Translations under genes and position numbers: made by a program | Notes under the pieces: generated by a model | Seen by the model: the letters and a program-made list of their open reading frames with translations, nothing else | Database searches by the model: none | Told to the model about the DNA's origin: nothing | In this document: piece by piece, positions 5,821 through 27,690 of the stretch | Numbering within the stretch: the first letter of the stretch is position 1 | Layout: each line of letters opens with the position of its first letter | Source: Escherichia coli | GTDB lineage: Bacteria; Pseudomonadota; Gammaproteobacteria; Enterobacterales; Enterobacteriaceae | Assembly (NCBI RefSeq): GCF_003334785.1 | Contig: NZ_QOWV01000012.1 | Strand: one strand, 5' to 3' | Length of the DNA: 64,000 nucleotides

Positions 5821-7101
5821 CTAAAAATTGCCGAGGGGGAACAAGGCCGGTAGCTGCGACAGCAAATATAAAATTAGCCCAATACAACCGCCGACCAGCG
5901 TACCGTTGACACGGATAAACTGCAGATCTTTGCCGATATTTAACTCGATTTGCCGCGACATATCCCGCGCATCCCAGCTTTTTACCGTGTCGCTGATATG
6001 GCGCGTCAGGAATGCGGAAAACTCAGGCGCGACGCGGTGCGCGGCTTGTTCCAGATGACCATTTAACGACGCCCGCAAGGCATCATCGGCAATTAACGTT
6101 TCGCCAAACCATTGACCCGCCCGCGCGATACGTTCTTTCACACGAGAATCTTCACTGTTGATATCCACTTTCAGCCATTCCCGTAAATCCCCCCACAATT
6201 CACTGAGATAGCGGTTAAAAGCTTCATCTTCTTTCAGATAACTTTTTACGGCATCGGCTCGCGCTGCCATTTCAGGATCGTTTTTCAACTTGTCGATCAG
6301 GGCAAAGGTGGCGCGATCAAATGCATGGCGGATCTGATGCGCACGATCGCGGCTGATATCATCAAGCAAAGAATTCACCGCGTCAGAAACCAACTCCGCG
6401 CTATGTTCGCCCAGCCATTCAGTAGGCAAAATTTTGGCTTTCAGCGGATGCTCGCTCTCCAGCCAGCGAACAATTTGCTGGGCAATAAACTTGCGCGATT
6501 TATCGCGCTGGAGAAGGGCGATCAACTGTGCGATCAGCGTATCCAGCAGCACCTGATGACGATTGTTTTTGGTCATACTCTCCAGCATCAACGCACTGGT
6601 TCCGGAAAGATCGACCTTATCAATCGCCCGATGGACCGCGCGCTTAAGCAGGCGCTGAATACGCGCATCATCGGTCAGTTCAAGAAAACCGCTCATGATC
6701 TGCAACAGATGCTGACCAACGCGGCGGGCGTTCTCCGGCTGACTAAACCAGTTGCCAATCAACAACGCCGGTTCGTGACGTCGAATCAATGCCACCAGCG
6801 ACTGGGTATCGAGAAATTTTTCCTGCACGAACTGACCGAGATTTTCGCCAATCCGGTCTTTATTACGCGGGATAATCGCCGTATGACGAGAAATGATCGG
6901 AATCGGCACGCGGCGAAACAGCGCCACCACCGCAAACCAGTCCGCCAGCGCGCCGACCATCGCCGCTTCAGCAATCGCCTTCACGCCGCTCACCCAAAAA
7001 TTGGGCGGCAAAAACAGCGTAACGACAAAGGTAGCAGCGGCGATAAGCAGTAAAGAGAGCGCCAACATTTTGGCGCGTCTGAGTTCAATGAGTTTATTCA
7101 T
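5821..7101 (-). CDS. yjiN: DUF445-family inner-membrane protein YjiN
   Basis: 426-aa ORF with N-terminal TM helices, conserved synteny between yjiM and mdtM. Confidence 0.75.
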
Positions 7102-7141
7102 AACGTTAAGAATAGAGCCTGACGGCAGGATCGCGCAAAAA

Positions 7142-8374
7142 TCACCGCTCCTCCGCCAGCTCGGCAGCCTGATGTTGGCGCACGCGATTGAGCAATCCTG
7201 CCAGGGTGAAAACGACGATAACGCCCGCCACGACGGCTAACAGATGAAACGGCAAGCGACCGCCGTTAAACCACAGCCAGCGGCCGATTTCGACCGAGAC
7301 AGACATCACCATCAGGATCACCATATTCAGCGATGCGGAGACGGTCCCTTTCGGTAAGTTATTGGAAAAAAGCGTAAAGCGGAATAAGGTCGGGAAGATC
7401 AAACCAATCCCGAAAGCATACAGACTGGTGCCCAGCACCGACCACAGCCAGACGTGCGGTGACAGCAGATTGCCGATAATCAACAGCGCGAGGCCGACCA
7501 GTTGAATGGGTACGGCACGCCAGATAAAGCGCGGTTCGGTCGGATCTTTAACGAAACGCGCCACGATGGCATTCGCGACAATCACCGCGCCGAACACCGG
7601 AACCTGTGTCCAGGCGAACTGCGAAGTTGTTAAGCCGCCCGCGTCGATCAGGATCACCGGCGAGACAGCCACCCAACTCATCATTGGGATATAGCTTAAA
7701 GAGATGGTTGCTGCGCCAAAGAGGAACAGCCGATTGCAAAAGACATTACGAAAATCGCGCAAGACGCTTTTGGCGCTAAATGGAACCGCGCCGCGCTTCA
7801 CCGTCTCTGGCATCGCCAGCAGTAAGCCAACAAATGAGATAAAACCCATAACCGCAATGATGGCAAAAAGGACTTTCCAGTGCACAAAGTGCATCAGAGC
7901 TGCGCCGGAAAGCGGGCCAATAATCGGCGCAATCAGTACGATGGAGGTGATAATCGCCATCAACTTAATCCCTTTTGTCTGTCCGAACGCCTCCTGCACC
8001 GTGACATAACCAACGGTAGCAATAAAACAGATACTGGTGCCCTGAATTGCACGCGCGATAAGAAACTGTGTCATAGACGTGGTGAACATTGTCGCAGCGC
8101 AGGCAAGGGTAAATATTAGCGCCCCGGTAATCAGCACCGGCCTGCGGCCAATCCTGTCGGAAAGTGGCCCCAGCAGCCACTGCAACGCCATACCGCCAGC
8201 GAGATAGAGACTGACGGCTGCCGGGGCCAGACTGACATCGGCATTAAAATCACGGACCACATTAATGATCCCCGGCTGGATCAGATCCGTCGACAGGTAC
8301 GCGGCAAAGTCATACAAAATCAACGCCATCGGGAAAAACAGCGTGGCGGCATGGCGGGCAAAAAAACGTGGCAT
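7142..8374 (-). CDS. mdtM: MFS multidrug efflux transporter MdtM
   Basis: ORF 7142-8383; ATG at 8374 gives 410 aa starting [26 protein letters not shown]; 12-TM MFS pattern. Confidence 0.85.
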
Positions 8375-8840
8375 AACAAACAACTCCTTGTCCGGAGAAC
8401 CCCAATGGGGAAAACGAAATTCAATACCGTCGGTAATGACGAAAGGCAGGCGAGAAGGACAAATGTACTGAATTTCATGTAATCAACCACTCTGCCTGTG
8501 AACACACAGACAGAGAAATACCTTCTGATTCCAGGTCAGAATGTATAACGATTACAAATAGTCATCAGCACATTACACCTCTTGAATTGATGGGTTGCAT
8601 AGAAAATATACACCTTAAGTGTAATTAAAATTTGCGGTTAATCAAAAGAGCGCGGTGGAAAGGGGAATATCTGCCGGGTACAGGAAATGTAAAACGCGAG
8701 CCTGTTTCCGGAAAAATGTATCGTTTGCAGACGAACAAAAATAGCCTGGAAAGCGCCTCGGGGAACGAGAAATTGCCGGGTGAGAATGGTTTTGTTAGTC
8801 GCTAAAGTCGGGCCATCTTATCAACAGGTGACGGATCGCC

Positions 8841-10027: not shown

Positions 10028-11440
10028 TTATTCCATTGCCCGATACACGGCATCGCCAATTTGCTTTAGTGCTTCGCGATAGGTTTCGCTGAGCGGCAAA
10101 GCGCAGTTGATGCGCAGACAATTACGGTATTTGCCGGAAGCCGAGAAAATCGAGCCTGCTGCCACCTGGATTTTCATGCGGTACAGCTGCCGCGCGACGC
10201 AGACCATATCGACCTGTTCAGGCAATTCGATCCACAGTAAAAATCCGCCTTTCGGGCGCGTAATACAGATTTCGCAGGGAAAATATTCCCGTATCCAGCA
10301 GGTATAAAGCGCCAGATTGCGCTGATAAGTCTGCCGCATCCGCCGGATATGGCGATGATAGTGACCTTCCAGCACAAACGTTGCCGCCGCCATTTGCGTG
10401 GACGGCACATTAAAGCTGCTGATGGCGTATTTCATATGCATCAGTTTATCGTGATAACGCCCCGGTGCGACCCAACCCACGCGCAGGCCTGGTGCAATGC
10501 TTTTACTGAACGAGCTGCACAACAGCACTCGCCCGTCGATATCCCAGGAATGAATGGTCCGCGGGCGCGGATACTCCGTTGCCAGTTCGCCGTAGACATC
10601 ATCTTCAAAAATCACAATATCATGACGCTGAGCGAGAGAGAGAACGGCCCGTTTGCGCGCGTCCGGCATAATAAATCCCAGCGGATTATTACAGTTTGGC
10701 ACCAGAATGATGCCTTTAATCGGCCACTGTTCCAGCGCCAGTTCCAGCGCTTCAACGCTGATGCCAGTTTCTGGATCGGTTGGGATTTCAATCACTTTCA
10801 CGCCCATACCGCGCAGCATCTGCATCGAACCGTAATAACAGGGGGATTCGACCGCGACAATATCGCCCGGTTTACACACCGCCATTAACGCCAGCGACAT
10901 CGAGTTATGGCAGCCGCTGGTGATAATGATGTCATCGGCGGTGACCACCGAGCCGCTGTCGAGCATCAGGCGGGCAACCTGCTCACGCAATACCCGCTGA
11001 CCGGCTAACAAGTCATAACCGAGAACGGTTTGCAGATTATGCTGCACCACCCGGCTTAGCTCCCGCCACAGCGGTTTCAGGCTGGGCGTTTCGACATCCG
11101 GCGTGCTTTTGCTTAACGGAACAATGGAACTGTCGCTATGCGCTTCCAGCATATCCAGCACCTGATCCCACTGGGTAATTTCCACCGGACGCTGCACCGG
11201 ACGCGTCATTGGTGGCACTGGCGGCTGGGCTTTACGTTGTGCGACAAAATAACCCGAACGCGGCTGTGGGGTGATGAGCTTCATCGTCTCCAGCGTCTGA
11301 TACGCCTGCTGCACGGTGCTGATGCTGACGCCGTGCTTCTGGCTTAAGCTGCGCACCGACGGCAATTTCTCCCCGTGACGATACAGCCCTTGCTCAATCC
11401 GCTCGGCAAGTAGAGTCGCCAGATGTTGATAACGCGTCAT
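10028..11440 (-). CDS. yjiR: MocR-family (GntR HTH plus aminotransferase domain) transcriptional regulator YjiR
   Basis: 470-aa ORF; N-terminal winged-helix GntR motif (LPSVRSLSQKHGVSISTVQQAYQTLE) followed by a PLP-aminotransferase-like domain. Confidence 0.85.
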   Translation of the reverse strand: MTRYQHLATLLAERIEQGLYRHGEKLPSVRSLSQKHGVSISTVQQAYQTLETMKLITPQPRSGYFVAQRKAQPPVPPMTRPVQRPVEITQWDQVLDMLEAHSDSSIVPLSKSTPDVETPSLKPLWRELSRVVQHNLQTVLGYDLLAGQRVLREQVARLMLDSGSVVTADDIIITSGCHNSMSLALMAVCKPGDIVAVESPCYYGSMQMLRGMGVKVIEIPTDPETGISVEALELALEQWPIKGIILVPNCNNPLGFIMPDARKRAVLSLAQRHDIVIFEDDVYGELATEYPRPRTIHSWDIDGRVLLCSSFSKSIAPGLRVGWVAPGRYHDKLMHMKYAISSFNVPSTQMAAATFVLEGHYHRHIRRMRQTYQRNLALYTCWIREYFPCEICITRPKGGFLLWIELPEQVDMVCVARQLYRMKIQVAAGSIFSASGKYRNCLRINCALPLSETYREALKQIGDAVYRAME

Positions 11441-15085: not shown

Positions 15086-15427
15086 TCAGGCAACTTTCTG
15101 TTTACCGGCAATCACCCCAATAAATTCCTGCACCTGCTTTTGTTTACGCGCCGACAGCTTGCACACCCTGCGCAGCGACTGCATCAGTTCGCTCTCTTCG
15201 GCGGCGGGTGGTTGAGCGGTGAGGACGATGCAGCCTTCCATCACTTTGACATCTACCGCCGTGCCGGTGGCAAAACCGGCGGCTTCCAGCCACTGACCTT
15301 TCAGGGTGATGGCGGGAATATGCGCGTGATCCGGGTAGCGGCTCGCATAACCGACGGTGACATGACGGTTATTTGCCGGAGAGACTTCTGCTTCGAACGG
15401 TTGTGCAATAGAATACGTGTCAGTCAT
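15086..15427 (-). CDS. symE: SOS-induced toxin-like protein SymE (type I toxin, AbrB/SpoVT fold)
   Basis: ORF 15086-15484; ATG at 15427 gives 113 aa starting [52 protein letters not shown], matching SymE. Confidence 0.85.
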
Positions 15428-15497
15428 AACTGCTATTCTCCGATAATAGTGATTGTGATGAGCGGTGCGGGTGTGTTGGCGCACATCCGCACCGCGC
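15421..15497 (+). ncRNA. symR: SymR antisense sRNA (cis-encoded antitoxin RNA of symE), approximate ends
   Basis: Established knowledge: SymR (~77 nt) is transcribed antisense across the symE RBS/start from a promoter inside symE. Sequence shows a TAGAAT -10 at 15409-15414 on the plus strand and a 9-bp stem hairpin (gcggtgcgg ... ccgcaccgc) ending at 15496. Confidence 0.45.
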
Positions 15498-15503
15498 TAA
15501 ATA

Positions 15504-16968: not shown

Positions 16969-18554
16969 TCCTTCACCCCACCAAACGCTTCTTCCAGCAA
17001 CTGACGCTGTGCATCCGCCTCATCGCTCGCCCCCAGTTCACGCATCAGCGCATCCAGTTCACCCAGCGCCTGTACCAGTTCGCCCATCGCTTCTGCCGCT
17101 AATACATCCGGCTCCGGCAGGTTGTCGGCGTCAATGCTGTCTTTATCTTTCAGCCAGGAGATATCCAGCGAATCGGATTTCGCGGAGCGGATCCACTCGC
17201 GGCTGAACTTGCGCCAGCGGCTGGTAGCCAGATGCTGATCGGTATTTTTGTTCTCTTCGCTGTCGGCAACTTCCGTCTCTTCGGCGTTAAAACTCCATTC
17301 CCCTTCAGTACGCGGGCTTAAGCCGTGGGGATCTTCGCCATACACGCGCTCAAACGGCTGCAAATGCTCGTCGGTAAACGGCGTGCGTTTACCAAAGCTC
17401 GGCATATTGGTCCGCAGGTCGTACACCCACACGTCGTCGGTGCAGTTCTTATCCTGATGCGGGTTCGCCACTGTGCCTTTGGTAAAGAACAGCACGTTGG
17501 TCTTCACGCCCTGCGCGTAAAAAATACCGGTCGGCAGACGCAGAATGGTGTGCAGATGACACTTATCCATCAGGTCACGACGGATGTCGGTGCCTTTGCC
17601 GCCTTCAAACAACACGTTATCTGGCACCACCACCGCCGCACGACCGCCGGGATGCAGCGTTTCGATAATATGCTGCATAAAGCACAGCTGTTTGTTGCTG
17701 GTCGGGTGAACAAAGGTGCGGGTAATGTTGGTGCCTGCGGCGCTGCCAAACGGCGGGTTAGTGGCGACAATATGCGCCTTCGGCAGGTTTTCACCGTCGC
17801 TGCCCAGGGTGTTGCCCAGACGGATTGCGCCGCCGTGGTCGAGGTTGCCTTCAATATCGTGCAGCAGGCAGTTCATCAGCGCCAGACGACGGGTGCCGGG
17901 CACCAGTTCGAGGCCGATAAACGCGCGGTGGATCTGGAAATCCTGTGTGTCGCCATCAAGGTCGTCCAGATCGTTAGTCTGCGACTTAACGTAGCGGTCG
18001 GCTTCAATCAAAAAGCCCGCCGTACCCGCTGCCGGGTCCTGCACCACTTCACGCGGCTGCGGTTTCAGCAGATGAATAATGGTTTTAATCAGCGGACGCG
18101 GGGTGAAGTACTGGCCCGCGCCAGACTTGGTTTCGTTCGCGTTCTTCTGCAACAGCCCTTCGTACATATCGCCGAAGTCATCGCGCGACTTACCGTGCGC
18201 ACCGTTGTACCAGTCCAGTGAATCCATATTGCTGACCAGTTCGGTCAACTGTTTTGGCTGGGTAATGGTGGTGTTGACGTTCTGGAACACCGCCTGCACC
18301 AGCTTTTGATTGTCGGCGCCCAGATGTACCAGCAGGTTACGGTAGAACTGCAACTGCTCCTGACCGATACGGGATTTCAGGTCGTCCCAGCGGTAGCCTT
18401 CCGGCAGGTATTCCGCTTCCTGTCTGGTTTCTTTACACATTTTCAAAAACAGCAGCGAGGCGAGTTCATTGACGTAGTTTTGATAGGAAACGCCGCCATC
18501 GCGCAGGTTGTCGCACAGCTTCCACAGCTTGGCGACCAGATCGTTATTGTTCAT
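16965..18554 (-). CDS. hsdM: Type I R-M DNA methyltransferase subunit HsdM (EcoKI-like, N6-adenine)
   Basis: 529 aa, MNNNDLVAKLWKLCDNLRDGGVSYQNYVNELASLLFLKMCKET..., NPPF catalytic motif present; near-identical to EcoKI HsdM as remembered. Confidence 0.95.
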   Translation of the reverse strand: MNNNDLVAKLWKLCDNLRDGGVSYQNYVNELASLLFLKMCKETRQEAEYLPEGYRWDDLKSRIGQEQLQFYRNLLVHLGADNQKLVQAVFQNVNTTITQPKQLTELVSNMDSLDWYNGAHGKSRDDFGDMYEGLLQKNANETKSGAGQYFTPRPLIKTIIHLLKPQPREVVQDPAAGTAGFLIEADRYVKSQTNDLDDLDGDTQDFQIHRAFIGLELVPGTRRLALMNCLLHDIEGNLDHGGAIRLGNTLGSDGENLPKAHIVATNPPFGSAAGTNITRTFVHPTSNKQLCFMQHIIETLHPGGRAAVVVPDNVLFEGGKGTDIRRDLMDKCHLHTILRLPTGIFYAQGVKTNVLFFTKGTVANPHQDKNCTDDVWVYDLRTNMPSFGKRTPFTDEHLQPFERVYGEDPHGLSPRTEGEWSFNAEETEVADSEENKNTDQHLATSRWRKFSREWIRSAKSDSLDISWLKDKDSIDADNLPEPDVLAAEAMGELVQALGELDALMRELGASDEADAQRQLLEEAFGGVKE

Positions 18555-18647
18555 TGTGAGTTCCGTAAATTAAGCAGCGGCCCAAATTTATTGGGCCGCA
18601 TAAGAATAAATTGCCGAGGGTAATATACACAAAATCATTCAGGTTGC

Positions 18648-18752
18648 ATCAAGGCGGCAAGTGAGTGAATCCCCGGGAGCGTACAGAAGTACGTGACCGG
18701 GGTGAACGAGCGCAGCCAACGCAGAGGCAGCCTGAAGGATGAAGTGTATACG
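18648..18752. repeat. ERIC/IRU (enterobacterial repetitive intergenic consensus) element
   Basis: aagtgagtgaatccccgggagcgtacagaagtacgtgaccggggtgaacgagcgcagccaacgcagaggcagcctgaaggatgaag matches the ERIC core in the hsdM-hsdR intergenic region. Confidence 0.6.
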
Positions 18753-18754
18753 TG

Positions 18755-21700
18755 TCAGGCCAGCTCGTCCCAGATATAATCGCTGAATTTATCGAGCAGG
18801 TTGTCGAGATTATCGTCAAAGGTTCTTTGCAGCATCGCCTTCCCGCCGCGACGGTGGAAGTTGCCGGTTTTGAAGACATCGTCGTCGAGCACCACTTTCT
18901 CTTTCAGCGCCTGTGCTAAACGATCGAGCCAGCTTAATTGCTCGCTGCTCCAGTCGTTTTCGCCCTTGATGCGCGTCAGCGCGTGATCGACACGTTCCTC
19001 AAACGGTTTCAGCGCATCGCCCACCGCAGCGCGGCGAATATGTCCAATCAACCGGGCGGCAATATCTTCATTACGCGTCTCTTTCCACGCTTTGCGCAGG
19101 GAAGATTCCTCAAAGTGCTGGCGGTCAAACCACTCCTGGAGTTCGACCAGCCCTTTACGGGTGAGATCGCGCGGGCGATTGATCACCGCCTGCAATGCCG
19201 GTTGCGCGTTCGGGGAACGTTGCACCAGCGAGTCAAAGGCTTCGAGGAAATCCTGCGGCGTGTCGTAATCACCGTACAGCGATTTTACGCTCAACACTTC
19301 ATCGTCGATATCGAGGAAGATCGGCGCATCATTCAGGTTATTGATATCAGTTTTCAGCTTTTCCAGGCGGGCGATAAAGCCAGGCAGCTTGTTAAAGACT
19401 TCGGCGCTCCAGTGCGGCCCTTTTTCCCGCAGGCGCGAGGCGAAGCCGTTAAAGCCCACCCCCGCCGCGTCCTGGCATAGCTCATCCAGACGACGCACCT
19501 GTTTATCTATCGTTTCGCTGCGGTCACGGTTAAACGTGGCCAGGCCGATGATGCGCTGGAGCTTCGCCACCAGTTGTTCATGGCTGTGCTCGGCAAAACT
19601 GCGGCCATCCGCTTCGGTGATTTTATAGGTTTCTGAATCGGTAATTTCGTTGACCAGCGTTTGCAGCTCCACCTTAGGACGCACCACCACCGGACGCATG
19701 GTGTCGACGCTCTCCAGCGTGCTGTATATATCGACGCAGTCGAAAATCTTAAAGCTGGTTTTATTCACGTCCGGGCACAAGCGCGTGGCGCGGCCTTTCA
19801 TCTGCTCGTACAGAATACGGCTGCGTACTTTACGCAGGAACACGATGTTACAGATCGACGGAATATCGACGCCGGTCGTCAGCAGGTCGACGGTTACCAC
19901 AATATTGGGCAGCCGCTCTTTATTGAAGCGGGTGATCATGGTCTGCACTTTGCGCGCGTCTTTATCGGCATCACCGGTGATCTTGATTATCGCGTCGTGC
20001 TCCAGTTGCGGATACTTTTTCTTGAACGCGGTACGCAACTCTTCCACCACCATATCGGCATGGGCATTGGTGACGCAGAAGACCAGCGTTTTTTGCGACC
20101 CGGTCGGGTCAAGGTAGTTGGTGAGTTCGTTACAGACGGCGCGGTTAAACGCCGGGATCACCAGGCCACGGTTAAAGTCGGCGACCTCAAAATCCTGATC
20201 GTCTTCCAGGGTGTCGTTGATTACTTCCCCCTGCGGGCTGATGCGCTCTACCTGTTCGCCTTTGGAGAGATAAACACCCTCCTGTGCGTTGCGGGTGGTG
20301 ATCTGAATTGGTGGATCCTGGTCGATCAGAAAACCGTCGATAACCGCGGTACGGTAGGTATAACGGTAAACCGGCTCGCCGAAAATCTGCACCGTATGCA
20401 ACGCCGGGGTGGCGGTGAGGGCGATTTTTATCGCATCGAAGTGATCGAGAATGCGACGGTAGGCAGAGACATAATCCAGCTGGCTGCGGAACTGTAGTTC
20501 GCCTTCGGTCTGCTCTTTATCGAGAATATAGCCGCGATGCGCTTCATCGACGACGATACAGTCGTAACGGGCCACCGGCATCGGTTCATCTGATTGCAGG
20601 GTGCGTTTCACCAGCGACTGTACGGTGGCAACGTGAATTTTGGTGCTGTCTTCCGGGAATTTATCCGTCAGCCCTTTAATGTCGAAAATGCTGTTGAAGG
20701 TGTCGCCGTTAATACGCGTATCTTCAAACGCCCCCAGCGCCTGCTCGCCAAGAGAACGGCGATCCACAAGGAAGAGAATGCGTTTAAAACGCTGGGACTG
20801 GATCAGGCGGAACATCATGGCAATTGCGGTGCGGGTTTTACCGGTACCGGTCGCCATCGCCAGCAGGATCTCTTGTTGACCCTTGACGATTGCCTTTTCC
20901 ACCGCGCGGACGGCATCTTCCTGATAATAACGCAGGCCCAGCTCGCTCATGCCGGGATTATCGGCAAACCACTGATTCTGTTTTTGCGGTTCGCTGCCGA
21001 GCATTTCCAGCAGCTCTTCCGGGCGATGCCACTCGGGTAAGGCTTTCGACATATTGCGGGTATCACGCACGTCGCGATACCAGATGCCACTTTTAGTCTT
21101 CATTGCTGCGCGGTATTCGCGCCCGTTGGTGGAGTAGCAGAAGGGGATTTTAAACCGTTGTTGGCCGCTGGAGTCCTGCCAGCTAGTTTCATACTCCGGC
21201 ACCGCTTCATGCACTTCATCCGGTGAGTAGTGCTCAAGCAAGGTTTCCCGCAGGAAGCCATTATCGAAGCATTTACTGTAGCGATACGACTCATTGAGCT
21301 TGCCGGGAACGTCGATATTTTTACGTTTCGCCTCTACCACCGCGATGGGTTTGAGGCCGACAAACAGCACATAATCCGCAAAGCCCTGTTTACCCGTTTC
21401 ATCTTTCCCGGTCGGCCATTCGGCAATGGCTTTATTGACGCCGGGTTCCGGGCGCGCGCCTTTGGAGAAGCGCAGGGTTTTGCTATCGGCCTGCCAGCCT
21501 GCTTTACGCAGTTGCGCATCAATCAGGAAGCGGCTCTCTTCTTCGCTAAGGTTGAGTGTGCGCTTGATGGCCTGATCGGTAATTTCTTTGTGGTAAGCCT
21601 TACGTTCCTGTTCAGTCTGTTTGGCCAGTTCCGCGTTCTTCTCGGCGAGCTGTGCTTCCAGCGCCGCAAGGCGAGCCTGGGTTTGCGCTTCTGTTTCCTG

Positions 21701-22267
21701 CTGTTTGCCTTCCAGAATAGCGATATAGCCGTTCAGGGCAACCAGCTTCTGCTGTTGCGCTTCGACTTCTGCCTGAGTCTGCGCTTTTTCTCGCACCTGC
21801 TGTTCAAGCTGTTGTTTTAGCGTCAGCACTTCCTGGTGATAGAGGTTCTCGCCACGTTCTGGTAACACAAACACCGGCACCGGGAAGTCATAATCTTTAG
21901 TGACCAGACGGTAGTACCAGACAGCCAGGCGGAACCCGAGTCGCAGGCACATCTGGGCATCGTCGAGATCGTTGTGATATTCGTGCACCGCCTGGTTACC
22001 AATGCGGCGTAATTTGTGAAATACAGAGAGAATGTTGTCATCAACGAAGGCGATTTTGCCGAGTTCGCGCAGGAGATCGTGTTGATTCTCACAAGGGGGG
22101 ATGTTGAGTAACAGACCAAGATGTTTCGCTGTGGCTTCGCCAAACATACGCATTTTAATTAGCGTCGTATTGGGATCATCCGGGTAGTTATTTTCCGCCG
22201 CACAGGCGATGGCATAAGTGAAGTCGTTGACGCCCTTCAGGAATTCGAAGTTGGATTTATTCATCAT
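18755..22267 (-). CDS. hsdR: Type I restriction enzyme R subunit HsdR (EcoKI-like helicase/endonuclease)
   Basis: 1170 aa starting MMNKSNFEFLKGVNDFTYAIACAAENNYPDD; SF2 helicase motifs (ATGTGKT, DEAH) present. Confidence 0.95.
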   Translation of the reverse strand: MMNKSNFEFLKGVNDFTYAIACAAENNYPDDPNTTLIKMRMFGEATAKHLGLLLNIPPCENQHDLLRELGKIAFVDDNILSVFHKLRRIGNQAVHEYHNDLDDAQMCLRLGFRLAVWYYRLVTKDYDFPVPVFVLPERGENLYHQEVLTLKQQLEQQVREKAQTQAEVEAQQQKLVALNGYIAILEGKQQETEAQTQARLAALEAQLAEKNAELAKQTEQERKAYHKEITDQAIKRTLNLSEEESRFLIDAQLRKAGWQADSKTLRFSKGARPEPGVNKAIAEWPTGKDETGKQGFADYVLFVGLKPIAVVEAKRKNIDVPGKLNESYRYSKCFDNGFLRETLLEHYSPDEVHEAVPEYETSWQDSSGQQRFKIPFCYSTNGREYRAAMKTKSGIWYRDVRDTRNMSKALPEWHRPEELLEMLGSEPQKQNQWFADNPGMSELGLRYYQEDAVRAVEKAIVKGQQEILLAMATGTGKTRTAIAMMFRLIQSQRFKRILFLVDRRSLGEQALGAFEDTRINGDTFNSIFDIKGLTDKFPEDSTKIHVATVQSLVKRTLQSDEPMPVARYDCIVVDEAHRGYILDKEQTEGELQFRSQLDYVSAYRRILDHFDAIKIALTATPALHTVQIFGEPVYRYTYRTAVIDGFLIDQDPPIQITTRNAQEGVYLSKGEQVERISPQGEVINDTLEDDQDFEVADFNRGLVIPAFNRAVCNELTNYLDPTGSQKTLVFCVTNAHADMVVEELRTAFKKKYPQLEHDAIIKITGDADKDARKVQTMITRFNKERLPNIVVTVDLLTTGVDIPSICNIVFLRKVRSRILYEQMKGRATRLCPDVNKTSFKIFDCVDIYSTLESVDTMRPVVVRPKVELQTLVNEITDSETYKITEADGRSFAEHSHEQLVAKLQRIIGLATFNRDRSETIDKQVRRLDELCQDAAGVGFNGFASRLREKGPHWSAEVFNKLPGFIARLEKLKTDINNLNDAPIFLDIDDEVLSVKSLYGDYDTPQDFLEAFDSLVQRSPNAQPALQAVINRPRDLTRKGLVELQEWFDRQHFEESSLRKAWKETRNEDIAARLIGHIRRAAVGDALKPFEERVDHALTRIKGENDWSSEQLSWLDRLAQALKEKVVLDDDVFKTGNFHRRGGKAMLQRTFDDNLDNLLDKFSDYIWDELA

Positions 22268-22454
22268 TGTTATTAATCCATTGCTGTGTGGGCCTGTCCA
22301 AATATTTAAGGCCCATAACGTCTTATCTTAGCTTTCTGTACCTTTCCGGACAATGACCGGAGTCACAGCAACTGACTCATTTCTAACGTGTTCGTCTATT
22401 TTGGTAGTGTTATAGTAGCCGAAAAACATCTACCTGATTCTGCAAGGATGTACT

Positions 22455-23369
22455 ATGACGGTTCCTACCTATGACAAATTTATTGAACCTGTTCTGCGTT
22501 ATCTGGCGACAAAACCGGAAGGTGCAGCCGCGCGTGATGTTCATGAGGCTGCCGCGGATGCATTAGGACTGGATGACAGCCAGCGAGCGAAAGTCATTAC
22601 CAGCGGACAACTTGTTTATAAAAATCGTGCAGGCTGGGCACATGACCGTTTAAAACGTGCCGGGTTGTCGCAAAGTTTGTCGCGTGGCAAATGGTGCCTG
22701 ACTCCTGCGGGTTTTGACTGGGTTGCGTCTCATCCCCAGCCAATGACGGAGCAGGAGACGAACCATCTGGCCTTCGATTTTGTGAATGTCAAACTTAAGT
22801 CACGGCCGGATGCCGTCGATTTAGATCCGAAAGCCGACTCTCCCGATCATGAAGAACTAGCAAAGAGCAGCCCGGACGATCGGTTAGATCAGGCGCTAAA
22901 AGAGCTTCGTGATGCGGTGGCTGATGAGGTTCTGGAAAACTTATTGCAGGTTTCTCCTTCGCGCTTTGAAGTCATTGTTCTGGATGTTTTGCATCGCCTG
23001 GGGTATGGCGGCCACCGTGATGATTTGCAGCGTGTTGGCGGTACTGGAGATGGTGGCATCGATGGTGTGATATCGCTTGATAAACTTGGCCTGGAGAAAG
23101 TTTATGTTCAGGCAAAACGTTGGCAGAACACTGTAGGCAGGCCAGAATTACAGGCATTTTACGGCGCACTGGCTGGGCAAAAGGCGAAACGTGGGGTGTT
23201 TATTACCACTTCTGGATTTACGTCTCAGGCGCGTGACTTTGCTCAATCCGTCGAGGGTATGGTGTTGGTTGATGGGGAACGCCTGGTGCACTTAATGATC
23301 GAAAACGAAGTAGGGGTTTCTTCACGTTTGTTGAAGGTGCCGAAACTGGATATGGACTATTTTGAGTGA
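22455..23369 (+). CDS. mrr: Mrr type IV restriction endonuclease (modified-DNA dependent)
   Basis: 304 aa starting MTVPTYDKFIEPVLRYLATKPEGAAARDVHEAAADALGLDD; divergent from hsdR as in the K-12 immigration-control region. Confidence 0.9.
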   Translation: MTVPTYDKFIEPVLRYLATKPEGAAARDVHEAAADALGLDDSQRAKVITSGQLVYKNRAGWAHDRLKRAGLSQSLSRGKWCLTPAGFDWVASHPQPMTEQETNHLAFDFVNVKLKSRPDAVDLDPKADSPDHEELAKSSPDDRLDQALKELRDAVADEVLENLLQVSPSRFEVIVLDVLHRLGYGGHRDDLQRVGGTGDGGIDGVISLDKLGLEKVYVQAKRWQNTVGRPELQAFYGALAGQKAKRGVFITTSGFTSQARDFAQSVEGMVLVDGERLVHLMIENEVGVSSRLLKVPKLDMDYFE

Positions 23370-23414
23370 AATATCAGGCCGGATGCGGCTGCGCCTTATC
23401 CGGCCCATAACCCC

Positions 23415-24371
23415 TTACTTCCTCAACCCCGCAAACGCCGCCCGAATCTCATCCTCCGGCAACTGAATCCCGATAAACACCATCGTGCTATGCGGTTTTT
23501 CATCGCCCCACGGTCTGTCCCAGTCGGCGCTGTAGAGGCGCTGGACGCCCTGGAACAGCAGGCGGTTAGCTTCGCCGTCAATCCACAGCATCCCTTTGTA
23601 ACGCAGCAGTTTATCCGCCGATTCCAGCAGCAGGTTTTCCATCACGCGGGAAACTTCGCTGATATCTACCGGGTAATCCAGTTCCACCACAATCGACGAA
23701 ATATCGTTTTGTTTATCCGCGATAAAGTGGAAACGCGGTTTGGTGCTGACGACGTTCTCTTCCAGCATAAAACCGTTGGTGTTGAACAGCAGGCCCAGGT
23801 CGATGTCGCCGTGGGTAACGGTGTAGACCGGTGCACGGGCGTTGATGCGCGCCAGGCGTTCGCGCAGTTTTTCTGCTTCGCCTGCGACGTCGGTTTTAGT
23901 CAGCAGAATACGGTCGGCGTAGCCAACCTGTGACTGGGCGATGGTGAACTGGTTCATCTGCTCATCGGCATGTACCGCATCCACCAGCGCAATCACGCCG
24001 TCCAGCAGGTAACGCTGGCATAAAATCTCATGGGAGAAAAAGGTCTGAATAATCGGGCCGGGATCGGCCATGCCGGTGCATTCAATGACCAGACGGTCGA
24101 ACTGAATATTGCCCTTGTCGAGATTATCCAGCAGGTCGAGTAGCGCGTCCTCCAGCTCGTTGGAGCGCGAACAGCAGATGCAGCCGTTGGTCAGCGTTTT
24201 GATCTGCGTGGCGCGGTCACCAATCAGTTGATCATCAACGGAGACTTCGCCGAATTCGTTTTCAATCACGGCAATCTTGTAGCCGTGTTGTTCGTTAAGA
24301 ATATGGCGCAGCAGGGTGGTTTTGCCCGCGCCTAAAAAACCGGTGAGTAGGGTAACTGCAATCGGGTTCAT
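23415..24371 (-). CDS. yjiA: COG0523/G3E-family P-loop GTPase YjiA (putative metal chaperone)
   Basis: ORF 23415-24455; ATG at 24371 gives 318 aa starting MNPIAVTLLTGFLGAGKTTLL (Walker A) with a CxCC motif (GCICCS). Confidence 0.85.
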   Translation of the reverse strand: MNPIAVTLLTGFLGAGKTTLLRHILNEQHGYKIAVIENEFGEVSVDDQLIGDRATQIKTLTNGCICCSRSNELEDALLDLLDNLDKGNIQFDRLVIECTGMADPGPIIQTFFSHEILCQRYLLDGVIALVDAVHADEQMNQFTIAQSQVGYADRILLTKTDVAGEAEKLRERLARINARAPVYTVTHGDIDLGLLFNTNGFMLEENVVSTKPRFHFIADKQNDISSIVVELDYPVDISEVSRVMENLLLESADKLLRYKGMLWIDGEANRLLFQGVQRLYSADWDRPWGDEKPHSTMVFIGIQLPEDEIRAAFAGLRK

Positions 24372-24381
24372 GCTCTCTCCA

Positions 24382-24585
24382 TTAACAACAGCGCATACCG
24401 CCTTTACCATCGCCGCCGTAGCGCGCGTTCTGGCGTTCGCGGAAGAATTCTTCATAGCTCATGTACGGCTTGTCGGGATGGTTGGTCTTCATATGCTCGA
24501 CGTAGTTGTCGTAGTCTGGAATGCCAATCAACATCTTCGCCGCCTGGCCGAGATATTTTTTTGCCTGTCCTAAGTTACCAAACAT
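24382..24585 (-). CDS. yjiX: DUF466 small protein YjiX (67 aa)
   Basis: 67-aa [61 protein letters not shown] immediately downstream of btsT. Confidence 0.75.
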
Positions 24586-24634
24586 AGTTCACTCTGATAA
24601 GAACAAAGCCCCGCCGAAGCGGGGCTAAACACGG

Positions 24635-26785
24635 TTAGTGGTGCGAAGAGATCTTCACGCCGCCTTCCGGGATTGGAACGTACGGTGTTTCTTTGTCAGT
24701 ACGTTTGTCGCTGTTACGCACCTTCAGCCAGGTTTTGAAACCGTAGAAGATGATGCTGTACACCACAATCAGGAACAGAATACTCAGGCCCGCGTTGGTG
24801 TAGTTGTTCACAACAATGTGGTTCATGTTGGCAATCTGCTGCGCCGTCAGGTCAGTACCGTTAGCAATCTTCTCTTTGTACTGGCTTGCCATGTAGAAGA
24901 AGCCTTCCATCTGTGGGTTGGTGCTGAACAGTTTCAGACCCAGTGCCCAGGTGGTGCAGATAAGCAGCCATACAGCCGGAACAACGGTAACCCAGATGTA
25001 TTGGGTGCGCTTCATCTTAATCAGCACAACGGTGCCCAGTACCAGCGCCACGGCTGCCAGCATCTGGTTGGAGATACCGAACAGCGGCCACAGGCTCTTA
25101 ACGCCGCCCAGCGGATCGACCACGCCCTGATACAGCAGGTAGCCCCACAGACCCACACAGCCCGCAGTACCGATGATACCGGCAACCAGAGAGTCGGTTT
25201 TTTTCAGGAACGGGATGAAGTTACCCAGCAGGTCTTGCAGCATAAAGCGGCCAGAACGGGTACCCGCATCCAGCGCGGTCAGGATGAACAGGGCTTCGAA
25301 CAGAATACCGAAGTGATACCAGAAGCCCATGTCAGCCATCGGCAGCACTTTGTGGAACACATGAGCGATACCTACCGCCAGCGTCGGCGCACCACCTGCA
25401 CGGTTCAGGACAGAAGGCTCACCAATGTCTTTCGCGGTTTGCAGGATCTGCTCTGGCGAAATCACGAAGCCCCAGGAGCTGACGGTTGCCGCCGCGTGTG
25501 CGGTAACGTCTTTCAGCTGCGCCATGATGATCGGCGCGTTCTCGCCACCCATTTCATGCAGGTTAGGCATGGTGATGCCAAGGCCAGCAGGCGGGGTATT
25601 CATCGCGAAGTAAAGACCCGGTTCGATGATGGACGCAGCAACCAGCGCCATAATCGCCACGAAGGACTCCATCAGCATTGCGCCGTAGCCAATGAAACGC
25701 GCGTCGGTTTCATTAGCCAGCAGTTTCGGCGTCGTACCGGAAGAGATCAGCGCGTGGAAGCCAGATACCGCACCACAGGCGATGGTGATGAACAGGAACG
25801 GGAACAGAGCGCCTTTCCACAGCGGGCCAGTACCGTCAATGTACTGGGTCATCGCAGGCATTTTCAGTTCCGGGTTCAGCACCACGATACCCAGCGCCAG
25901 GCCGACGATAACGCCGATTTTCAGGAAGGTTGCCAGATAGTCGCGCGGTGCGAGGATCAGCCACACCGGCAGCAGTGCGGAAACAAACGCATAGCCAATC
26001 AGCGCGAAGGTAATGGTGGTGTCTTTAAAGGTCAGTGCCGGACCCCAGTACGGATCGTGAGCAATCACGCCACCGAAGTAGATAGAGGCAACCAGCAGCA
26101 CGATACCAATGACAGAGACTTCACCCACACGCCCCGGACGGATAAAGCGCATGTAGATACCCATAAACAGCGCAATCGGTACGGTTGAGCAAACGGTGAA
26201 AACACCCCACGGGCTTTCGGCCAGGGCTTTAACCACAATCAGCGCCAGGACGGCAAGGATGATGATCATGATTAAGAAACAGCCAAACAGCGCGATAGTC
26301 CCCGGTACTGGTCCCATCTCTTCTTTGATCATCTCACCGAGAGATGCGCCGTTACGGCGAGAGGAGATAAACAGCACCATAAAGTCCTGTACCGCACCGG
26401 CCAGTACTACCCCCGCCAGCAGCCACAGCGTGCCAGGTAGGTAGCCCATCTGCGCGGCGAGAACCGGACCAACCAGCGGACCAGCACCGGCGATAGCGGC
26501 GAAGTGGTGACCAAACAACACGTAACGGTTGGTCGGAACGTAGTTCAGACCGTCGTTGTTAATAACCGCAGGCGTCGCGCGCGTGGGGTCGAGTTTCATC
26601 ACCTTCTGGGCGATGTACAAACTGTAGTAGCGATACGCCACCAGATACACCGACACAGAGGCGACCACGATCCACAGGGCGCTGACGTGCTCCCCCCGAC
26701 GTAATGCAACTACCGCGAGGCAGAATGCACCGATGATTCCGAGAATCACCCAGGGTATGTGCTTGAATAGTTTTTTCGTATCCAT
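24635..26785 (-). CDS. btsT: CstA-family pyruvate/H+ symporter BtsT (YjiY)
   Basis: ORF 24635-26800; ATG at 26785 gives 716 aa starting MDTKKLFKHIPWVILGIIGAFCLA; polytopic membrane protein. Confidence 0.9.
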   Translation of the reverse strand: MDTKKLFKHIPWVILGIIGAFCLAVVALRRGEHVSALWIVVASVSVYLVAYRYYSLYIAQKVMKLDPTRATPAVINNDGLNYVPTNRYVLFGHHFAAIAGAGPLVGPVLAAQMGYLPGTLWLLAGVVLAGAVQDFMVLFISSRRNGASLGEMIKEEMGPVPGTIALFGCFLIMIIILAVLALIVVKALAESPWGVFTVCSTVPIALFMGIYMRFIRPGRVGEVSVIGIVLLVASIYFGGVIAHDPYWGPALTFKDTTITFALIGYAFVSALLPVWLILAPRDYLATFLKIGVIVGLALGIVVLNPELKMPAMTQYIDGTGPLWKGALFPFLFITIACGAVSGFHALISSGTTPKLLANETDARFIGYGAMLMESFVAIMALVAASIIEPGLYFAMNTPPAGLGITMPNLHEMGGENAPIIMAQLKDVTAHAAATVSSWGFVISPEQILQTAKDIGEPSVLNRAGGAPTLAVGIAHVFHKVLPMADMGFWYHFGILFEALFILTALDAGTRSGRFMLQDLLGNFIPFLKKTDSLVAGIIGTAGCVGLWGYLLYQGVVDPLGGVKSLWPLFGISNQMLAAVALVLGTVVLIKMKRTQYIWVTVVPAVWLLICTTWALGLKLFSTNPQMEGFFYMASQYKEKIANGTDLTAQQIANMNHIVVNNYTNAGLSILFLIVVYSIIFYGFKTWLKVRNSDKRTDKETPYVPIPEGGVKISSHH

Positions 26786-26842
26786 AGTAAAACCTGGCAT
26801 TTTACTCGTCGTCTTTTGGCTTACAGGTGCGGCAGCTGCGTT

Positions 26843-26897
26843 CGTTCACCTCTGACACTTACTGTTGTAAGCTCCCGGGGATTCACTCACTTGCTGC
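26843..26897. repeat. Partial ERIC/IRU-like element, inverted relative to the copy at 18648-18752
   Basis: Reverse complement (ggcagcaagtgagtgaatccccgggagcttacaacagtaagtgtcagaggtgaacgaacgcagc) aligns with the ERIC copy at 18655-18715. Confidence 0.5.
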
Positions 26898-27135
26898 CTT
26901 CCTGCAAACCAAAATCCATAGAGTAATTTGTTAATCATAGGCCGAAGCCGTTCTAGGTTTGCGTTGCGTTTGAGGAGGTAAATTGACCGCTATCCTGCAG
27001 TGATGTTGCCAGAGATACGCGCGCGTAAAGTAAGGTAAATAACTGAGTGGTTATTTTAGGGATGTAAGCGGTCAGGAATGGCGGTGAGCGGTTGGGCAAG
27101 AATTATTCATCGGGTGGATATGTGATTGAGATCAC

Positions 27136-27171
27136 AATAAAAATGCCCCTTCGACGAATGCGTGAAGGGGC
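27136..27171 (-). terminator. Rho-independent terminator downstream of hpaC
   Basis: Minus strand: gccccttcacgcattcgtcgaaggggc hairpin followed by attttt, a few nt after the hpaC stop. Confidence 0.55.
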
Positions 27172-27177
27172 TGGAGC

Positions 27178-27690
27178 TTAAATCGCAGCTTCCATTTCCA
27201 GCATCACCGGATGGAAACGGCGTTTAAAGTAGATAAGTCCGTGACCTTCTGCACTGAGGATGATGTTTTTAATCTCCACCAGATACACCAGATGTGTGCC
27301 AATTGCCTGCACATCGCGGATCTCACCTTCAAGACTGGCCAGCGAACCTTTTAGCACCGGCTGCGCCAGCGGACCTTTTTGCCAGCATGAGAGGCTAAAA
27401 CGCTCTTCCATCGCCATGCCTGTCATGCCCGCGAAGTGGCGTGCCATCAGTTCCTGCTCATGGTTGAGGACGTTGACGCACAACTTGCCGTTGCCCTGAA
27501 AAACCGGGTTCATCGCACTGTTGGCGTTAATGCACACCATCAGCGACGGTGGTGTATCCGTGACCGAGCAGACAGCCGTTGCCGTAATCCCGCATTGTCC
27601 GGTGTCGCCCTCGGTGGTGATAATATTTACCGCTGCCGACAGGCTGGCCATCGCGTCACGAAAGCGCAGGCGTTGTTCATCTAATTGCAT
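27178..27690 (-). CDS. hpaC: 4-hydroxyphenylacetate 3-monooxygenase reductase component (flavin:NADH oxidoreductase)
   Basis: 170 aa, flavin-reductase-like; directly downstream of hpaB. Confidence 0.9.
   Translation of the reverse strand: MQLDEQRLRFRDAMASLSAAVNIITTEGDTGQCGITATAVCSVTDTPPSLMVCINANSAMNPVFQGNGKLCVNVLNHEQELMARHFAGMTGMAMEERFSLSCWQKGPLAQPVLKGSLASLEGEIRDVQAIGTHLVYLVEIKNIILSAEGHGLIYFKRRFHPVMLEMEAAI

Follow-up and report, generated by a model that had tools for sequence, protein, structure and literature searches.

Gene Context of the hsdM–btsT Region

The 64,000-nucleotide stretch of Escherichia coli DNA analyzed here (referred to as the window) contains, in this order, the genes hsdM, hsdR, mrr, yjiA, yjiX and btsT, followed by hpaC, as deduced from its list of open reading frames and from the genome of E. 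coli E2 (NZ_CP104509), which is 100% identical and annotated in RefSeq. Around the segment hsdR-mrr-yjiA-yjiX-btsT, two ERIC sequences are located 8.05 kb apart in opposite orientation, designated ERIC-A and ERIC-B in the following (Table 1). The preliminary description of the region had correctly recognized this arrangement.

Table 1. Features of the hsdM–btsT region (positions within the window).
Feature	Position	Strand	Remarks
Terminator-like GC-rich hairpin with T-rich tail	18577–18599	-	between ERIC-A and hsdM ATG (18554); terminator scan
ERIC-A	18623–18746	+ (Rfam model orientation)	full-length ERIC/IRU, 124 nt, between hsdR stop codon and hsdM
Perfect core, ERIC-A side	18657–18680		GCAAGTGAGTGAATCCCCGGGAGC; 24 nt, conserved ERIC core; exhaustive exact-match search
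Bracketed segment	18755–26785		hsdR to btsT
hsdR	18755–22267	-	
mrr	22455–23369	+	
yjiA	23415–24371	-	
yjiX	24382–24585	-	
btsT	24635–26785	-	
ERIC-B	26805–26923	-	full-length, more diverged ERIC, 119 nt, btsT leader
Perfect core, ERIC-B side	26871–26894		24 nt, reverse complement of ERIC-A side; exhaustive exact-match search
BtsR (YehT) box, candidate	27044–27072	-	ACCGCTTA-N13-ACCACTCA; marks btsT promoter upstream of ERIC-B

Upstream of ERIC-B, a perfect match to the motif ACCRCTYA-N13-ACCRCTYA was found (0.29 matches expected in the window at up to two mismatches). This motif reportedly originates from work by Kraxenberger et al. in 2012, and we take the matching stretch to be the BtsR (YehT) binding box. 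ERIC-B is thus placed between this box and the SD-like CAGG and ATG of btsT. Transcription of btsT has been described to be under BtsS/BtsR and CRP control, and CsrA, a further regulator of the gene, represses it post-transcriptionally (PMC7730263). A promoter scan of the minus strand revealed no sigma-70-like site for hsdM within positions 18450–18900 and none for btsT; for the latter gene this result carries no information, since its transcription requires the activator BtsR. ERIC-filled and ERIC-empty alleles alike contain the terminator-like hairpin, in which the stem base is conserved and the loop varies; ERIC-A accordingly lies between the stop codon of hsdR and a possible structure at the hsdR 3′ end. 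Furthermore, REP/naRNA4 copies, representing a family separate from ERIC, were noticed in the window at approximately 53143 and at 60995–61376.

Similarity and Family Assignment of the Two Copies

A repeat search of the window identified inverted arms at 18644–18748 and 26803–26907, each 105 nt in length, 75% complementary (79 of 105 positions identical without gaps) and separated by 8054 nt. The best local alignment comprises 62 identities over 73 nt (84.9%), whereas over the full length 88 of 127 positions of the global alignment are identical (69% overall). Accordingly, the two sequences are reverse complements of each other as initially described, and their similarity is not as low as the less than about 80% identity over fewer than 30 bp that had been named as speaking against such a pair. 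The inverted pair reached a local score of 91, compared to a mean of 15.7 and a maximum of 29 for shuffled sequences, and blastn of the two copies yielded an E-value of 3e-18. Chance similarity is ruled out by the Gumbel p-value of approximately 1e-15, corrected for the whole search space of 9.5 kb × 9.5 kb. In direct orientation, the alignment scored only 14, equivalent to no similarity, and therefore the opposite orientation of the copies is well defined and not feigned by self-palindromy. The longest exact run common to both copies is the 24-nt core, followed by one of 9 nt in the exhaustive search; the core is also unchanged among unrelated ERIC copies.

Judged by their sequences, both copies are ordinary members of the known ERIC/IRU family of miniature mobile elements. 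These elements of the Enterobacteriaceae, also named RU-1, were reportedly described by Sharples and Lloyd in 1990, by Hulton, Higgins and Sharp in 1991 and by Wilson and Sharp in 2006. Family members measure approximately 127 bp, carry terminal inverted repeats (TIRs) with TA at their termini and are accompanied by a target-site duplication (PMC2229807, PMC3184786). Both copies align end to end, on opposite strands, to one covariance model, giving lengths of 124 nt for ERIC-A and 119 nt for ERIC-B. The binding sites of the ERIC1R and ERIC2 primers, which were designed from the conserved central core of the family and whose sequences were checked against published literature, lie back to back on opposite strands and diverge in both copies, with three mismatches each in ERIC-A, and with two (ERIC1R) and five (ERIC2) mismatches in ERIC-B. 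Moreover, the core AAGTGAGTGAATCCC is invariant across five copies from four loci. Each copy is an imperfect palindrome of approximately 120 nt with TIRs, with z-scores of the hairpin minimum free energy (MFE) between -4.6 and -7.3, and the consensus hairpin calculated by RNAalifold from seven copies comprises 38 pairs, of which 12 feature compensatory double changes. TA was found at both ends of both copies, and single TA dinucleotides in the empty alleles. Using ERIC-A as query, a median of 13 places (range 3–20) per E. coli genome was detected. Further ERIC copies were observed at puuR-puuC and inside one of the rpn genes.

Neither copy is marked in the RefSeq annotation, including that of NC_000913.3. 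The earlier statement that the gene annotation leaves this structure unexplained is right to that extent, but the structure is accounted for by a repeat family of 1990–91. Among the full texts searched, no relevant publication linked ERIC to hsdR, hsdM or yjiY/btsT.

Insertion Sites and Distribution among E. coli Genomes

ERIC-A had been located at 18648–18752; the element is indeed there, but its true span is shifted slightly to the left. Its end lies less than 10 nt from the hsdR stop codon (18755–18757), and the element is bounded by TATA/TATA, leaving its exact end ambiguous by about 2 nt. The plus sign in Table 1 denotes the direction of the Rfam model, whereas the element would be transcribed together with hsdR from the minus strand. 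The filled allele reads AA-TA-[ERIC]-TA-CGTG versus GA-TA-CGTG with a single TA in the empty allele of strain wlxctx60; filled and empty alleles differ in length by 124 bp. In K-12, ERIC-A is identical.

ERIC-B is flanked by TA at 26803–26804 and 26924–26925, and its 3′ end (in btsT sense) is followed by the btsT ATG (26785) 19 nt downstream. Its filled allele has the form GGCAT..-TA-[ERIC]-TA-.. versus a single TA in the empty allele, which is 123 bp shorter and occurs in K-12 and approximately 3300 other genomes. This difference, together with the end-to-end alignment to the covariance model despite diverged outer arms, rules out the earlier view of a partial copy of about 55 bp; the element is complete. 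In E. albertii as well as in Escherichia sp. E1V33, the corresponding site holds an orthologue of ERIC-B. As judged from this shared site in E. albertii, ERIC-B is old. The E. coli and E. albertii elements are identical at 117 of 119 positions and conserved as much as the adjacent coding sequence, which may leave room for some selected role. The window's own ERIC-B carries two derived, strain-specific changes that weaken its stem.

Among complete E. coli genomes, ERIC-A is present in 894 of 938 EcoKI-type hsd loci, and ERIC-B in 2063 of 5384 btsT leaders (38%), the remaining 62%, including K-12, being empty. Both sites are filled in approximately 264 genomes (2964 places minus 2700 records), representing about 5% of E. 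coli. The probability of ERIC-B in the presence of ERIC-A is 30%, compared to 38% overall, and the presence of one element is statistically independent of that of the other. Different combinations were encountered in individual strains, namely ERIC-A alone in K-12, UTI89 and an O6:H16 strain, both elements in STEC346, E2 and 120899, and neither in wlxctx60. With 13–25 copies per 5 Mb, chance alone would give each genome 0.13–0.5 inverted ERIC pairs spaced no more than 8.3 kb apart.

Proposed Origin and Predicted RNA Structures

Based on these results, two independent ERIC insertions are proposed, the inverted arrangement of which is incidental, with no action as a pair, no inversion of the segment and effects confined to the surroundings in cis (probability of roughly 90%). 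The target of ERIC-A would have been a TA directly behind the stop codon of hsdR, and ERIC-B would have entered, in a separate event, a TA located 19 nt before the btsT ATG. The copies are mutually reverse-complementary because both belong to one family and are oppositely oriented. Considering their positions, both elements most probably lie in transcribed stretches. The transcripts of the adjacent genes, both read from the minus strand, would include the respective element, which would fold onto itself into a hairpin of approximately 120 nt, the ERIC-A RNA within the hsdR 3′ untranslated or hsdR-hsdM intercistronic region and the ERIC-B RNA within the btsT 5′ leader. Any function of each element is probably local and in cis; the hairpins could have modest effects on how the mRNA is processed or how stable it is, as ERICs do in Yersinia.

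The RNA structures anticipated earlier for the hsdR 3′ UTR and the btsT 5′ leader find support in folding predictions, since the predicted hairpins are far more stable than those of shuffled sequences. For ERIC-A, -56.1 kcal/mol (z -7.3) was calculated for the plus strand and -42.1 kcal/mol (z -4.6) for the minus strand, and the ERIC-B hairpin in btsT sense reached -48.4 kcal/mol (z -5.5). In the predicted fold of the btsT leader, ERIC-B represents an autonomous module. The predicted unpaired probabilities of the SD and AUG are the same in filled and in K-12 empty leaders; hence, occlusion of the btsT ribosome site by ERIC-B is unsupported.

Alternative Interpretations

A tentative extension is that ERIC-B represents a cis-regulatory polymorphism changing the stability, processing or translation of the btsT mRNA in the 38% of E. 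coli carrying it; this is possible, yet clearly on the unlikely side. In agreement with such a role, ERIC-B follows the BtsR box and precedes the SD-like CAGG, forms a strong predicted hairpin in sense orientation and is conserved at its site in E. albertii; the orientation-dependent change of mRNA levels by Yersinia ERICs likewise fits. Conceivable routes are added GGA motifs for CsrA, the known post-transcriptional repressor of btsT, entry sites for RNase E/III, or the disappearance of the ACA that K-12 has at -17. A MazF cut at this position has been listed for K-12 yjiY (PMC5001579), and the corresponding ACA is missing from the filled allele. However, the insertion leaves the predicted SD/AUG accessibility unaltered, the majority of strains lack the element, among them K-12, in which btsT regulation was worked out, and the two stem-weakening changes in the window's copy are as expected under neutral drift.

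Pairing of the two RNAs in trans appears very improbable. With both elements transcribed from the minus strand, the copy in the hsdR 3′ UTR would be complementary to that in the btsT leader and form with it an RNase III substrate linking the expression of the restriction enzyme and of the pyruvate transporter. Its energetic basis would be the cofold of both RNAs, predicted at -129.8 kcal/mol versus -90.5 kcal/mol for two separate hairpins, with a duplex including the 24-bp perfect core. Nevertheless, each RNA would be kinetically trapped in its own co-transcriptional hairpin, the complementarity is that of the common family core and would hold for any two opposite ERICs, and the two copies, which are statistically independent in their presence, coincide in only about 264 of 5426 genomes. 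With equally little probability, a predicted hsdR-btsT ERIC duplex of approximately 100 bp, processed by RNase III, would constitute an accidental regulatory link between the restriction enzyme mRNA and that of the pyruvate transporter in about 5% of strains.

Inversion, an idea of the preliminary description, would have the 8-kb segment hsdR-mrr-yjiA-yjiX-btsT flipped by homologous recombination at the ERIC pair and would separate btsT from the promoter that BtsR activates. In its favour, the inverted similarity of the copies is genuine and of high significance, and their 24-nt perfect core is about as long as the shortest stretch needed for RecA-dependent recombination in E. coli, a minimum (MEPS) reportedly determined by Shen and Huang in 1986 as approximately 23–27 bp. 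On the other hand, identity amounts to 75–85% only, just one perfect run is as long as the MEPS limit, and mismatch repair strongly suppresses recombination between sequences of such divergence. Moreover, btsT would lose its promoter, which would then point antisense into hsdR. The survey for an inverted segment decided this question at the assembly level. For the left and the right junction expected after inversion, chimeric queries of 700 + 700 nt whose crossover was set inside the 24-nt core were searched against 5426 complete E. coli genomes, a match being defined by at least 80% query coverage. For either junction no such place was found (left 0/5426, right 0/5426; consensus assemblies would miss rare inversions in subpopulations), although approximately 264 of these genomes hold both copies. 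In agreement with this, the region 18000–27500 is collinear in 935 genomes. Inversion mediated by the repeats is thus hardly probable.

Least probable of all is a composite MITE-bounded mobile unit (like TIME-COMPs) moving the hsdR-to-btsT block with the ERICs as its ends: inverted terminal copies of one MITE family do surround a block of defence genes in a known hypervariable region, but this reading is ruled out by the separate TA duplication and empty-site allele of each ERIC and by their independent distribution, and furthermore btsT-yjiX-yjiA are core genes that practically every genome has as one copy, the variable region stops at yjiA/mrr (query position ~5416) and not at ERIC-B, and the block was not found at a second location (median of one place per genome).

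Significance of the ERIC Pair

With two independent insertions as the preferred explanation, the pair is of little importance beyond correct annotation; it represents an incidental by-product of dispersed repeats and not an inversion switch in the immigration-control region. The K-12 btsT (yjiY) leader is not species-wide, since 38% of complete E. coli genomes as well as E. albertii carry a 119-nt hairpin at this place, and the transfer of btsT promoter or leader constructs from strain to strain should allow for ERIC-B. At both sites, filled alleles with TA duplication are cleanly told apart from empty ones, which makes the sites handy markers of ERIC mobility and of band differences in ERIC-PCR. 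If trans-pairing took place, oppositely oriented transcribed MITE copies would form a network of mutual antisense RNAs, while in a milder version ERIC-B alone would be a common natural 5′-UTR variant tuning btsT expression.

Comparison with Known Systems

Inverted repeats within a Type I R-M locus are also known from hsdS shufflons and Type I R-M ‘epigenetic invertons’ (e.g., PMC7672463). In these systems, long near-perfect repeats flank the target-recognition domains of hsdS, a site-specific recombinase is encoded adjacently and both orientations occur in natural populations. In contrast, the ERIC pair consists of diverged MITE copies (24 nt as maximum perfect run) around hsdR and four unrelated genes, only one orientation was observed in the 5426 genomes, and no invertase gene was found among the annotated genes hsdSMR, mrr, yjiA, yjiX, btsT and hpaCBA in and beside the block.

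The Rfam database contains no ERIC family; both copies yielded sub-threshold matches to RF02818 (V_AS5, Vibrio RNA AS5) only, covering all 129 model positions with the same long-hairpin architecture. Membership is ruled out by scores of 44.9 bits for ERIC-A and 28.2 bits for ERIC-B versus a gathering score of 96, and Vibrio RNA AS5 itself is probably an ERIC-type transcript. Correia/NEMIS of Neisseria, RUP of S. pneumoniae and REP/BIME are likewise small, non-autonomous palindromic repeats, co-transcribed as stem-loops affecting mRNA. Correia and RUP are TA-flanked as ERIC is, yet none of these families shows a sequence relationship to ERIC-A or ERIC-B.

A closer parallel is provided by the ERICs of Yersinia, which De Gregorio et al. 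are said to have described in 2005 as orientation-dependent mRNA stability elements. The Yersinia copies resemble those of the window in lying beside a stop codon (as ERIC-A) or inside a leader (as ERIC-B), in their potential for RNA hairpins and in the TA duplication on insertion. Compared with the ERIC/IRU family as a whole, ERIC-B stands out by its diverged outer arms and its two stem-weakening changes. There is no essential difference from the family: intergenic location in probably transcribed regions and presence or absence from strain to strain are alike, and the pair is an ordinary case of repeats already known since 1990–91.

Two ERIC elements in inverted orientation flank the hsdR-btsT block

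The region comprising the hsd genes and btsT (yjiY) is 100% identical to the corresponding region of E. coli strain E2 (NZ_CP104509). In the preliminary description, two ERIC-like sequences were proposed to be reverse complements of each other at a distance of approximately 8.1 kb, and this was confirmed. A single outstanding inverted repeat was returned by the repeat finder (105 nt, 75% complementary, 8054 nt apart). Alignment of the copy between hsdR and hsdM (ERIC-A) with that in the btsT leader (ERIC-B) yielded 62/73 identities (84.9%) in the best local alignment, i.e., more than about 80% identity over more than 30 bp, as well as 79/105 identities ungapped and 88/127 over the full length. 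The local score of 91 compares with a shuffle mean of 15.7 and a shuffle maximum of 29 (p ~1e-15, Gumbel fit, corrected for the whole 9.5-kb search space). In direct orientation, alignment of both copies revealed no similarity (score 14), showing that the opposite orientation is genuine and not a by-product of each element's palindromy. At a density of 13-25 copies per 5 Mb, chance alone should produce 0.13-0.5 inverted pairs within 8.3 kb in each genome, so that the arrangement needs no special explanation.

Positions of the ERIC copies and associated features (L-numbers denote comparison loci from other genomes)
Feature	Sequence	Position	Strand	Remark
hsdS, hsdM, hsdR (all -), mrr (+), yjiA, yjiX, btsT (-), then hpaC/hpaB	window	18000-27500		gene order from annotation
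ERIC-A	window	18623-18746	+	
ERIC-B	window	26805-26923	-	
Inverted repeat	window	18644-18748; 26803-26907		
Longest perfect identity	window	18657-18680; 26871-26894		24 nt
TA flanking ERIC-B	window	26803-26804; 26924-26925		
Divergent stretch beside ERIC-B	window; K-12 (L002)	26926-26945; ~11300-11320		
Site of the K-12 MazF ACA	window	26801-26804		GAGUAAAAUGCC
btsT ATG	window	26785		
Presumed BtsR/YehT box	window	27044-27072	-	
Synteny break	window	~27091-27135		just upstream of the BtsR box
hsdR stop codon	window	18755-18757		
Terminator-like hairpin	window	18599-18577	-	GC-rich
Sigma-70-like match	window	18752-18780	+	GTGTCA-17-TATAAT, 10/12, consensus match only
Ordinary Rfam features	window	15422-15498; 52912-52995; 53143-53293; 60912-61376		last: tandem array, four to five REP-type units
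btsT and leader	E. albertii NBRC 107761 (L013)	~6392-8838		
puuR-puuC ERIC	E. coli MSB1_9D (L012)	1501-1623		
ERIC in Rpn-family pseudogene	E. coli O6:H16 2014EL-1346-6 (L008)	790-908		gene halves 340-789 and 915-1409
yjiX-btsT spacer	UTI89 (L009)	15187-15305		

The btsT-side copy, previously taken for a partial element of about 55 bp, is a complete element of 119 nt with diverged outer arms that aligns to the model from end to end. The structure, which the gene annotation had been noted not to explain, is of an already known kind, the ERIC/IRU family described since 1990-91, whose members are left unmarked in RefSeq annotation including NC_000913.3, which accounts for the earlier impression. 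ERIC-A and ERIC-B match positions 1-129 of the Rfam covariance model V_AS5 on opposite strands with 44.9 and 28.2 bits, respectively; as both fall short of the family threshold of 96, the scores indicate a common architecture only and not membership in the Rfam family. The ERIC core, from which the standard PCR primers ERIC1R and ERIC2 derive, is present in both copies. The primer sites (sequences as published, occurring together in 233 papers) are directly adjacent and point away from each other; ERIC-A deviates from the primers at 3+3 positions and ERIC-B at 2+5, and the strands of the two sites are exchanged from one copy to the other. Each copy is predicted to fold into a hairpin of about 120 nt (-42 to -56 kcal/mol; z -4.6 to -7.3 against dinucleotide shuffles), except for the ERIC-B antisense strand (z -1.9). 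Among the 38 pairs of the consensus hairpin derived from seven aligned copies (four loci), 12 feature compensatory double changes, e.g., CAC/GTG to CTC/GAG and CAGG/CCTG to TTGG/CCAA to CAAG/CTTG.

Using ERIC-A as query, a median of 13 related places (range 3-20) was found per complete E. coli genome. A copy between puuR and puuC of strain MSB1_9D is 85% identical to ERIC-A, has its terminal-stem variant (TACAC...GTGTA) and may be its closest subfamily relative. Another copy (81% identical to ERIC-A) in the O6:H16 strain 2014EL-1346-6 splits a pseudogene of a recombination-promoting nuclease exactly and is an insertion within a coding sequence. Further Rfam matches in the window, unrelated to ERICs, comprise the SymR antitoxin RNA opposite symE (89.5 bits), a tRNA (- strand) and REP-type naRNA4/CssrE units. 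In the literature searched, from which the catalogue of Wilson and Sharp (2006) was absent, no mention of an ERIC at yjiY/btsT or hsdM was found.

Independent occurrence of both copies

Both sites exist in filled and empty states. ERIC-A is present in 894 of the 938 genomes possessing the hsdM-hsdR junction of this hsd type, including K-12, where all 124 nt are identical; about 40 genomes, e.g., wlxctx60, have an empty site and a span shortened by 124 bp. A single TA in the empty allele corresponds to TA-[ERIC]-TA in the filled one. The ERIC-B site is filled in 2063 of 5384 complete genomes and empty in the remainder, including K-12, whose btsT leader is 123 bp shorter; here also, TA occurs on both sides in filled and once in empty alleles. 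A chimeric query of both blocks (E <= 1e-120, a cut-off passed by uninterrupted sites alone) matched 2964 places in 2700 records, corresponding to approximately 264 genomes with both copies. Accordingly, ERIC-B accompanies ERIC-A in 30% of cases compared with 38% overall, and the presence of both is roughly independent. In spot checks, STEC346 contained both copies, UTI89, an O6:H16 strain and K-12 ERIC-A only, and wlxctx60 neither.

Escherichia albertii NBRC 107761 and Escherichia sp. E1V33 were found to carry ERIC-B at this same site before btsT when species-representative genomes were searched with an ERIC-B-specific arm sequence; their element shares 117/119 nt with the window copy. The latter carries two derived substitutions, GTGTCAGAGG in place of GTGACAGGGG, weakening its stem. 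The genome-wide identity of E. coli and E. albertii is around 90%; since btsT and its leader are 97% identical over 2.4 kb, strong conservation or inter-species recombination is suggested. In the BtsR box of E. albertii NBRC 107761, the spacer is 12 nt instead of 13. Furthermore, filled and empty alleles differ by about 40% in the roughly 14-20 nt that immediately precede the ERIC-B insertion point in btsT sense (TATGATTAACAAAT vs. AACTATTAATCAA), the remaining leader being approximately 97% identical; old divergence sheltered by the neighboring indel is one possible source, a footprint left by insertion or excision another.

ERIC-B in the btsT leader

Expression of btsT depends on BtsS/BtsR and CRP, and CsrA represses the gene post-transcriptionally (PMC7730263). 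Upstream of btsT, a perfect ACCRCTYA-N13-ACCRCTYA repeat was found (with up to 2 mismatches allowed, chance would give 0.29 matches). The BtsR/YehT box reportedly is this direct repeat, a motif attributed to Kraxenberger et al. in 2012, and the match is taken here to be that box. ERIC-B lies between this box and the btsT ATG, the insertion point preceding the ATG by 19 nt and an SD-like CAGG by about 6 nt; by position, it almost certainly belongs to the btsT 5' leader.

Whether ERIC-B represents a regulatory polymorphism of btsT appears doubtful, albeit conceivable. It introduces three GGA motifs into the leader, is conserved in E. albertii and abolishes the ACA 17 nt before the start codon (-17), where MazF cleavage is listed for K-12 yjiY (PMC5001579). 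However, the majority of strains lack ERIC-B, and the window copy shows stem decay. Moreover, folding of the filled and the K-12 empty leader predicts an autonomous hairpin module with the same unpaired probabilities of SD and AUG, i.e., equal accessibility of the ribosome-binding site. Of mild use is the observation that 38% of E. coli have a btsT leader distinguished from the K-12 one by a 119-nt hairpin.

The K-12 MazF ACA coincides in part with the TA target of ERIC-B and is missing from the filled allele. Beyond the synteny break, btsT is neighbored by hpaC (window, strain 488, STEC346), tsr (K-12, UTI89, O104:H4, Nord1), an amino-acid deaminase gene (D10) or an NAD(P)/FAD oxidoreductase gene (O6:H16). 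The yjiX-btsT spacer of UTI89 comprises 118 bp vs. 50 bp in the window, K-12 and other strains, owing to an extra insertion of about 68 bp.

ERIC-A between hsdR and hsdM

ERIC-A ends less than 10 nt from the hsdR stop codon and is followed on the - strand by a terminator-like hairpin 22 nt before the hsdM ATG, present in filled and empty alleles. Given both features, ERIC-A most plausibly belongs to the hsdR 3' untranslated or intercistronic RNA. The hairpin is a candidate hsdR terminator or hsdM 5' structure. Across four alleles (window, K-12, STEC346, wlxctx60), its 7-bp GC stem base is invariant, and the upper stem and loop vary. In K-12, nine pairs are preserved only by G-U wobbles in the - strand RNA, suggesting that the hairpin functions as an RNA of hsdR/hsdM sense. 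The promoter scan found no - strand sigma-70-like site for hsdM. The best such match in the region begins at the edge of ERIC-A and the hsdR stop and is directed antisense into the hsdR 3' end.

Inversion, interaction and comparison with known systems

Most likely, both ERICs are passenger hairpins that may each mildly change mRNA decay or processing in cis and would not interact with each other. For Yersinia ERICs, orientation-dependent changes of mRNA decay or processing are described (De Gregorio et al. 2005, as reported in a citing paper).

Inversion mediated by the pair, as initially suggested, was not corroborated. In E. coli, perfect identity over about 23-27 bp is required for RecA-dependent exchange, which increases with length above that, and mismatch repair suppresses exchange between sequences that are 15-25% diverged. 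Given a longest perfect run of 24 nt (next run 9 nt), exchange between the copies should be very rare. Both predicted post-inversion junctions (700 nt on each side) were compared with all 5426 complete genomes, none of which had a place covering at least 80% of either query; every genome featured just the two parental halves on opposite strands, and in 935 the entire block was collinear with the window. Within this sample, no such inversion exists, be it as a polymorphism or as a switch; assemblies being consensus sequences, the search speaks to these and not to rare subpopulations. As deduced from the sequence, inversion would strip btsT of its promoter and turn the latter antisense into hsdR. 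Even as a rare event rather than a feature, it is considered highly improbable. Equally improbable is pairing in trans of the hsdR 3' ERIC-A with the btsT leader ERIC-B: it is thermodynamically favored (-129.8 vs. -90.5 kcal/mol), but the hairpins constitute a kinetic trap, any two opposed ERICs would pair likewise, and only about 5% of genomes contain both. A composite transposon bounded by ERIC-A and ERIC-B as MITE ends is scarcely credible, as ERIC-A and ERIC-B each possess a separate TA duplication and empty site and the hypervariable region stops at yjiA/mrr, not at ERIC-B.

Invertible segments occur in nature in both orientations and possess long near-perfect repeats and an adjacent recombinase, features in which the ERIC-bracketed block differs from them. 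Published ERIC/IRU elements comprise about 127 bp with terminal inverted repeats, a target-site duplication, 5'-TA-3' at both termini and long stem-loop transcripts (PMC2229807, PMC3184786). ERIC-A and ERIC-B agree with this family in every defining feature put to the test, co-transcription being deduced from their position.
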